DNA from: a virus
Direction: 5' to 3' (one strand)
Length of the DNA: 17,538 nt
Virus genome (UHGV): UHGV-0202355
In this document: piece by piece, positions 15,380-15,437 of the stretch
Position numbering within the stretch: the first letter of the stretch is position 1
Layout: the number at the start of each line of letters is the position of its first letter
Made by a program: the position numbers and the translations under genes
The notes under the pieces: model-generated
What the model saw: the letters and a program-made list of their open reading frames with translations, nothing else
Databases searched by the model: none
What the model was told of the DNA's origin: nothing

Positions 15380-15437
15380 ACGTATTTCTCCAATTGTTGC
15401 GTACGCATGGAGAAATTATCACCGGGCACAATCTAAC

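Follow-up and report, generated by a model that had tools for sequence, protein, structure and literature searches.

A conserved leader stem-loop predicted to sequester the Shine-Dalgarno sequence of a small His/Cys-rich phage gene

The primary transcripts of type I toxin genes (tisB, hok, dinQ, zorO) are kept inert by an upstream strand complementary to the Shine-Dalgarno (SD) sequence, and they are activated by loss of this 5' strand. For stems that sequester the SD, de Smit and van Duin reportedly found with the MS2 coat gene that stem stability predicts initiation lowered by orders of magnitude. In phage T4, the genes e (lysozyme), soc, 49 and I-TevI carry inhibitory hairpins in their translation initiation regions, according to PMC3014915 (section 29; McPheeters et al. 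1986, cited there). Here we describe an element of this kind in the UHGV virus genome UHGV-0202355, of which the whole analysed stretch of 17,538 nt is referred to as the window: a leader stem-loop on the minus strand, directly preceding a gene for a 68-aa His/Cys-rich protein of the family phrog_4298 (15173-15379, minus strand; MKYYVHTLEDAQNDHEVHTETCFRLPDANNRKELGEFNSCEPAVRAAKNLGYTRANGCYWCCRDCHTS). We consider it probable that this stem-loop acts as a translational brake, or insulator, on late transcripts that read through into the gene. It is best filed as an element that would work like the classic SD-sequestering leader hairpins, with the T4 gene e class as its closest phage precedent and outside any Rfam family.

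In the minus-strand leader, which reads GATA-ATTTCTCCA-TGCGTACGCA-ACAAT-TGGAGAAAT-ACGT-ATG, the anti-SD strand ATTTCTCCA / AUUUCUCCA (15416-15408) makes up the 5' arm of an outer stem and is the perfect complement of the 3' arm TGGAGAAAT / UGGAGAAAU (15392-15384), which holds the SD GGAG (15391-15388); the repeat finder reports arms of 9 nt each with 100% complementarity and a spacing of 15 nt. The four nucleotides ACGT lie between the 3' arm and the ATG (15379-15377). The spacing is filled by the apical element UGCGUACGCA (palindrome TGCGTACGCA; 15407-15398), which in the minimum free energy (MFE) and centroid structures forms a 3-bp mini-helix UGC/GCA with a GUAC cap, stacked directly on the outer stem, and by the bulge ACAAU (5 nt; 15397-15393) between apical helix and SD arm on the 3' side, which stays unpaired in every fold. 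Thus GGAG lies inside a helix with an upstream strand of the same leader, the property by which SD-sequestering hairpins are defined. Arms and palindrome, with GGAG in the 3' arm, had been given with exact coordinates and sequence in a preliminary description of the window, as a re-reading of the letters confirmed. An 8-bp palindrome, ATACGTAT (15378-15385, minus strand), extends into the start codon and shows complementarity to the apical palindrome's 5' half.

As in the T4 gene e class characterized in PMC3014915, the SD and/or AUG of a phage gene would be paired with an upstream strand whenever a long read-through transcript is made, the DNA of the 5' strand carries a -10-like sequence, and strong transcription is expected to come from upstream. 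According to the same text, the T4 genes have mapped late promoters (TATAAATA) and measured effects on translation, whereas here we find a weak -10 resemblance that lacks a -35 element and that some relatives contradict. Nor does T4 have a counterpart to the nested GUAC-capped helix and the CAA bulge. The logic would also be reversed relative to T4: the phage here is a temperate, lambdoid-type prophage whose late genes form one anti-terminated operon, so the gene would be silent late and expressed from a promoter of its own. The MS2-type stems are resembled in that a local stem of about -12 kcal/mol holds the SD; those cases are engineered or concern single genes, whereas here a conserved, covarying stem is attached to a mobile gene cassette. 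Like type I toxin mRNAs, the leader has an anti-SD strand 5' of the SD that is predicted to pair with it, but the product is a hydrophilic, confidently folded His/Cys-rich domain and not a hydrophobic membrane peptide, and the promoter scan found no antisense promoter.

The preliminary description had proposed that the leader folds so as to occlude the ribosome binding site, and RNA folding bears this out: the SD strand is paired in both the MFE and the centroid structure, at about -12 kcal/mol. For the 45-nt leader the MFE is -12.1 kcal/mol (z = -3.6), and none of 200 shuffled sequences was equally stable; a looser stretch of 66 nt gives a z of only -1.8. Evaluated explicitly, the hairpin has -11.8 kcal/mol, compared to -3.8 kcal/mol for the best alternative helix, AUGCGUA:UACGUAU across the start codon, which is not competitive in the full leader. 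The computed values of -11.8 to -12.1 kcal/mol at 37 C should be enough to compete with binding of the 30S subunit.

The folding results also bear on an RNA thermometer, in which an AU-rich stem would melt at host temperature. The stem does share with fourU and ROSE elements an AU-rich composition, pairing with the SD and the use of a pyrimidine-rich strand for it in a short hairpin of the 5' untranslated region, and wobble pairs are common in the relatives. Unlike those elements, however, the stem in the window has no internal mismatches, and its predicted stability and perfection would keep it from melting in the physiological range. We rejected the thermometer as highly improbable, given a computed probability of SD pairing of 1.00 across 20-45 C, hairpin energies that weaken only from -13.7 kcal/mol at 25 C to -10.0 kcal/mol at 42 C, and no ROSE or fourU match in Rfam at E <= 10. 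No other Rfam 15 match at this threshold overlapped 15380-15420 either. Three further candidates were dismissed: an intrinsic terminator or attenuator, as the stem is not followed by a U-run; an RNase III site, for which the helix is too short; and coupling to the lipoprotein-like open reading frame (ORF) upstream, whose stop (15438) lies 22 nt before the arm and is thus too distant.

The main evidence for the element comes from its relatives. Protein-guided searches of viral, metagenome and assembly collections yielded >170 loci (cited below by L numbers), while a search of the genome contig collection gave only two distant ones. The comparison of the hairpin covers relatives whose proteins are 57-100% identical, with 16 distinct leaders for the pair classes. 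A common plan is found in these leaders, consisting of an AU-rich anti-SD strand, TG[C/T]GTAC[G/A]CA, an A/C-rich bulge of 4-6 nt, the SD strand, 2-6 nt and the ATG. A covariance model built from 17 distinct leaders finds one motif per locus, always directly 5' of the phrog_4298 gene. Even in the raw, uncurated MAFFT alignment, in which two clades are off register by one column, 80.4% of the cells pair (44-61% with slid partners), and the covariation score of 0.333 (0.07-0.19 with slid partners) was reached by none of 500 shuffles. RNAalifold predicts the outer stem independently, with three compensated pairs. As the covariance-model alignment left the E. coli and L011-type rows unregistered, the helix register was set for each sequence by our own script; in this register, the eight central pairs of the 16 leaders comprise 108 Watson-Crick and 17 G·U cells, no A·C cell and three other cells. 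Both sides have changed at three pairs: at the loop-proximal pair, the window has A:U where others have U:A; the pair next to it goes from G:C by way of G:U to A:U; and at the seventh pair the window and the E. coli types have A:U, two lineages G·U and most others U:A. One-sided changes likewise retain pairing, with C to U opposite G in L003 and L107 and A to G opposite U in L013. In L114 an A to G change would destroy a -10 element, yet the pairing stays as G·U. Taken together, the stem has been kept by selection on RNA pairing across relatives, which represent about five lineages, and of the two proposals in the preliminary description the RNA hairpin over the ribosome binding site is the one that these 16 leaders uphold, with compensatory and G·U changes and not a single A·C.

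The same counts speak to the other proposal, in which the 9-bp inverted repeat and/or the 10-bp palindrome would be a DNA operator bound by a dimeric repressor of transcription. The perfect repeat does overlap a -10-like hexamer in the window, and in distant relatives palindromes lie over clear promoters: L133 has GAACACGTGTTC at +1, L134 an 18-bp palindrome that covers the -10 and L135 an inverted repeat of 11 bp. The symmetry of the apical palindrome is also preserved, by a both-side change in the L012 clade (TGCGTACGCA -> TGTGTACACA). However, a protein-bound duplex would be expected to gain A·C as readily as G·T, and the absence of A·C beside 17 G·U is therefore a strand-specific pattern that argues for an RNA helix of the sense strand. 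Moreover, the 3' arm always coincides with the SD, whatever its sequence, and the palindrome is off-centre between the arms. No second operator copy was found in the window, and Pfam scans of four flanking ORFs, the partner gene introduced below included, gave no match. An operator is thus disfavoured, and we regard it as very unlikely.

Taken by itself, the window provides weak evidence that repeat and palindrome are more than chance. Perfect 9-bp inverted repeats with loops of 3-20 nt occur as eight overlapping hits at three loci (1.2 expected from dinucleotide shuffles), 10-bp palindromes are found at chance frequency (15 observed, 17 expected), and neither the palindrome nor the arm sequence recurs elsewhere in the window beyond chance. 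One of the three loci is a 10-bp perfect inverted repeat, GGTGGCGTCC, at 475-506 with a loop of 13 nt. We judge the leader element to be real because it is conserved, with covariation, in homologous loci.

Conservation of the palindrome, which the preliminary description had suggested looking for in related prophages, holds in part. The GTA and the following CAA of the apical part are invariant in all 17 leaders, though unpaired or weakly paired, and the symmetry survives the double change in the L012 clade; in L110 and L122 it is broken. The bulge is A/C-rich in all homologs (ACAAT, ACCAAA, ATCA, ACCA, ACAGT, AAAAC). This core is more conserved than a passive loop would need, which could reflect a trans-acting factor that opens or locks the hairpin at the apical GUAC loop and CAA bulge, be it a phage or host RNA-binding protein, a small RNA, or the 68-aa zinc-type protein or its 93-aa partner with the hairpin as an autogenous operator. 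The retained palindrome symmetry would fit such a factor, as would the nature of the 68-aa protein itself, a confidently folded His/Cys-rich domain with a weak structural likeness to the zinc DNA-binding domain of Ada. On the other hand, the apical helix does not survive in L110 and L122, and the apical motif is wholly missing from L017, L167, L168 and L170. We therefore hold a factor of this kind to be unlikely.

How the stem-loop would work as a brake can be outlined as follows. On any transcript that carries the whole leader, the 9-nt anti-SD strand would pair with the SD strand, and the GUAC-capped helix would stack on top of the outer stem, leaving the 5-nt bulge on the 3' side. With the SD double-stranded, 30S subunits would be excluded and the 68-aa gene would be translated very poorly despite heavy transcription of the late operon. 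Combining about -12 kcal/mol with the relation reported by de Smit and van Duin predicts a very large drop in translation, and the hairpin is accordingly inferred to lower it. The late operon places lysis genes on one side of the gene and packaging genes on the other, and a brake against late read-through, uncoupling the output of the 68-aa protein from that transcription, would thus be the most straightforward function of the hairpin. It is plausible that the 68-aa gene is controlled apart from the late operon, at the level of translation. As candidates for release we consider, in order of preference, (a) a weak internal promoter in or after the 5' arm, (b) ribosomes on an upstream ORF (uORF) and (c) a factor at the apical GUA..CAA.

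The first of these would make the brake more specific rather than contradict it: the gene's own promoter would lie in the DNA of the 5' arm, so that its own transcripts, starting at or beyond about 15408 and missing the anti-SD strand, are translated, whereas read-through transcripts are silent. A -10-like hexamer GATAAT (15420-15415, minus strand; also readable as TGaTAATTT, 15422-15413) overlaps the start of the arm and is the candidate internal promoter; for transcripts starting at 15408-15406 the probability of SD pairing is about 0.5-0.6 instead of 1.0. In the relatives, -10-like elements abut or overlap the anti-SD arm, several of them of consensus type (TGnTATAAT directly before CTCCTT in L141 and L135, TGgTATAAT in L143, TGaTATACT in L144 and ATAACA-16-TATTAT in L012), and for L141 a transcript that begins at the predicted start has a computed SD pairing of 0.14 instead of 0.97. 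The genes of the late operon lie upstream in the same direction, and T4 offers a precedent for a promoter within a hairpin (PMC3014915). Against this, the site in the window has no -35 element and was not called by the promoter scan, which requires one; the E. coli variant has TTTAAT/TAATTT only; and L114 carries a G at the essential -11 position while its pairing is still kept. The best promoter of L106, TTGAGA-16-TATATT, would start transcription just 5' of the arm, and L011 has its TAATTT another 9 nt upstream. Some likeness to -10 hexamers follows in any case from the composition of AU-rich arms, and in the Firmicutes relatives the gene stands alone without a co-directional upstream gene, which leaves little to insulate against. 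On balance, gating by such a promoter is a tentative possibility. In the Firmicutes-type relatives L133, L134, L135, L141, L143, L144 and L005, the lone family gene is opposed to its neighbours and often lies beside XRE-type helix-turn-helix genes; these relatives have consensus extended -10 promoters, with palindromes over or just after the promoter.

Further upstream, a conserved box AAUGAUCAUUAUCAA / AATGATCATTATCAA with an A-tract before it (15455-15441, minus strand) is located at about -75 in the window, in the E. coli type and in L017, L167 and L168, and is diverged in L170 and L172. It persists in lineages with a completely diverged leader between box and gene; the palindrome ATGATCAT lies within it, and its conservation extends to synonymous positions. 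A scan of viral contigs for the box (AAATGATCATTATCAA) returned chance matches only. The AUG of an 11-codon uORF, MIIINELDCAR (15454-15419, minus strand), falls in this box, and its stop ends 3 nt before the 5' arm. Ribosomes finishing the uORF at the foot of the hairpin could thus melt the 5' arm and expose the SD, making expression dependent on translation of the leader peptide and possibly on isoleucine supply by way of the three consecutive Ile codons. Four lineages (the window, the E. coli type, L017 and L167) keep a frame of 11-12 codons open despite differing downstream codons; its stop falls at -40 to -36 (-39 to -36 in the three besides the window), level with the foot of the anti-SD strand or slightly beyond it. 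The upstream region is A-rich. However, the uORF has no SD. In L168 it runs to only 7 codons, L170 lacks the AUG, in L172 the sole start is GUG, and the clades L011, L106-109 and L012 have the hairpin but no such uORF. An open frame of such length in four lineages would arise by chance in ~15-25% of cases by our own estimate, and the conservation of the box at synonymous positions suggests a role at the level of nucleic acid rather than coding. Coupling to this leader ORF is, in our view, quite unlikely.

Other branches of the same two-gene cassette are predicted to occlude the start region with unrelated sequences. In L168, CAUGCGUA is kept but pairs with UACGCAUG, so that the AUG is enclosed in a 10-bp stem whose loop contains the SD (-15.1 kcal/mol, z = -3.8); this only stem of L168 matches the pairing that forms the weak alternative helix of the window. 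In L167 both SD and AUG are buried (-16.9 kcal/mol, z = -2.8), and the SD region is paired in L017 and L170 as well; all four leaders have no apical motif. For a family-wide comparison, the ViennaRNA partition function was computed by script for positions -70 to +20, with the SD placed by its duplex with the 16S 3' end. Mean SD pairing was 0.72 in 32 independent clusters of SD-bearing leaders and 0.56 in 167 control leaders from the same loci, and the share with SD pairing >0.8 was 38% versus 14% (Mann-Whitney p = 5e-5), with start codons called by us and controls that are mostly intra-operon genes. This signal of SD occlusion across the family is suggestive only. On a wider reading, the leader would represent an undescribed riboregulator for a family of about 725 His/Cys-rich members across phyla, whose start has been occluded repeatedly by unrelated sequences; the apical GUA..CAA would then be the dock of a factor or part of a promoter-in-hairpin switch that limits the product to its own transcript, for example in the lysogen. 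We consider this doubtful. If true, it would mean that the protein is harmful or mistimed when made from late transcripts.

Several observations weigh against the stem-loop as a selected translational brake. L110 and L122 have lost the third pair of the inner 3-bp helix, and the three cells of true mismatch are A·A in L110, G·G in L014 and one in L106 that depends on the register. The 16 leaders amount to only about five lineages, and independent events are accordingly few (~3 double changes and ~9 wobble events). The evidence for repression consists of folding energies. If the transcript starts inside the arm and there is no read-through, the hairpin would never form. The family-wide difference is subject to our choice of start codons and to the intra-operon bias of its controls; the apparent anti-SD arms of L005 and L134 are the reverse complement of the divergent neighbour's own SD, a trivial origin that also accounts for several seeming promoter-in-arm cases from Firmicutes; and in the L067-type clade the pairing is not kept.

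Judged by gene order, co-directional transcription would enter from upstream, where two holins (16295-16687 and 16030-16359), an M15 endolysin (15650-16033) and, directly 5', a 65-aa lipoprotein-like ORF (15438-15635; phrog_7528, E = 1e-33) lie on the same minus strand, with the terminase genes on the 3' side. A strong terminator-like hairpin with a T-run (15561-15586, minus strand) lies within the part of this ORF that codes for the signal peptide, and it could shield the cassette from upstream transcription that is not antiterminated. The 3' end of the lipoprotein ORF diverges from its E. coli homolog (L002, 2700-2740) from about position 15470, ending in ...DAVRCCVKINDHYQ instead of ...DGVRQCMQN (compared stretch 15438-15475), and from this comparison the left boundary of the cassette appears to have replaced the original end of the lipoprotein gene. 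Directly after the 68-aa gene, the terminator scan detected a terminator-like hairpin AAAGGTCGCTTCGGCGGCCTTTTTTATT with a T-run (15150-15129, minus strand), which recurs in homologous cassettes. It is followed by the 93-aa partner gene (14812-15093, minus strand; phrog_33497, E = 2e-52), which succeeds the 68-aa gene in enterobacterial-type cassettes, and further downstream on the minus strand by three genes of unknown function and the small and large terminase subunits. The leader of the 93-aa gene is unstructured and A-rich with GGAGG, and the start context ACGTATG is common to both cassette genes. A gene of 86-94 aa comes after the 68-aa gene in L002, L013-L018 and L167; 68-aa gene, hairpin and 86-94-aa gene travel together as a cassette. 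In E. coli the cassette is positioned directly after a different endolysin (GH108), and in L017, L018 and L167 before a holin. Just past the stop of another minus-strand gene (13709-14011), a perfect inverted repeat of 13-14 bp, CATTACAGCAGCCC ... GGGCTGCTGTAATG, is found at 13667-13703; it is followed by a second hairpin, CCGGCA...TGCCGG, and the minus strand has no U-run there.

The 68-aa protein was assigned to phrog_4298, of unknown function, with E = 1e-23. Neither Pfam and NCBIfam scans nor a sequence search of the PDB gave a match for it. The AF2 model is confidently folded (pLDDT 97.3), and the Ada domain mentioned above is its sole structural neighbour. A profile search retrieved about 725 relatives, all of them unnamed or annotated as 'hypothetical', and tblastn located the family gene in phages of Staphylococcus, Streptococcus, Erysipelothrix and Vibrio. 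Among 5,426 complete E. coli genomes 13 contain the cassette, with the 68-aa gene intact (loci L001-L003) but annotated in none of the 13. Annotation pipelines thus overlook a small, well-folded His/Cys-rich family, and the regularity with which its start site is guarded points to a product whose dosage or timing is important. If the hairpin works as proposed, a gene within the most transcribed region of the prophage would be kept translationally silent, a clean natural case of a temperate phage insulating a 'moron' cassette at the level of translation. The result yields a compact element of ~33 nt, backed by comparative genomics, and gives reason to study the gene pair in lysogeny and induction.
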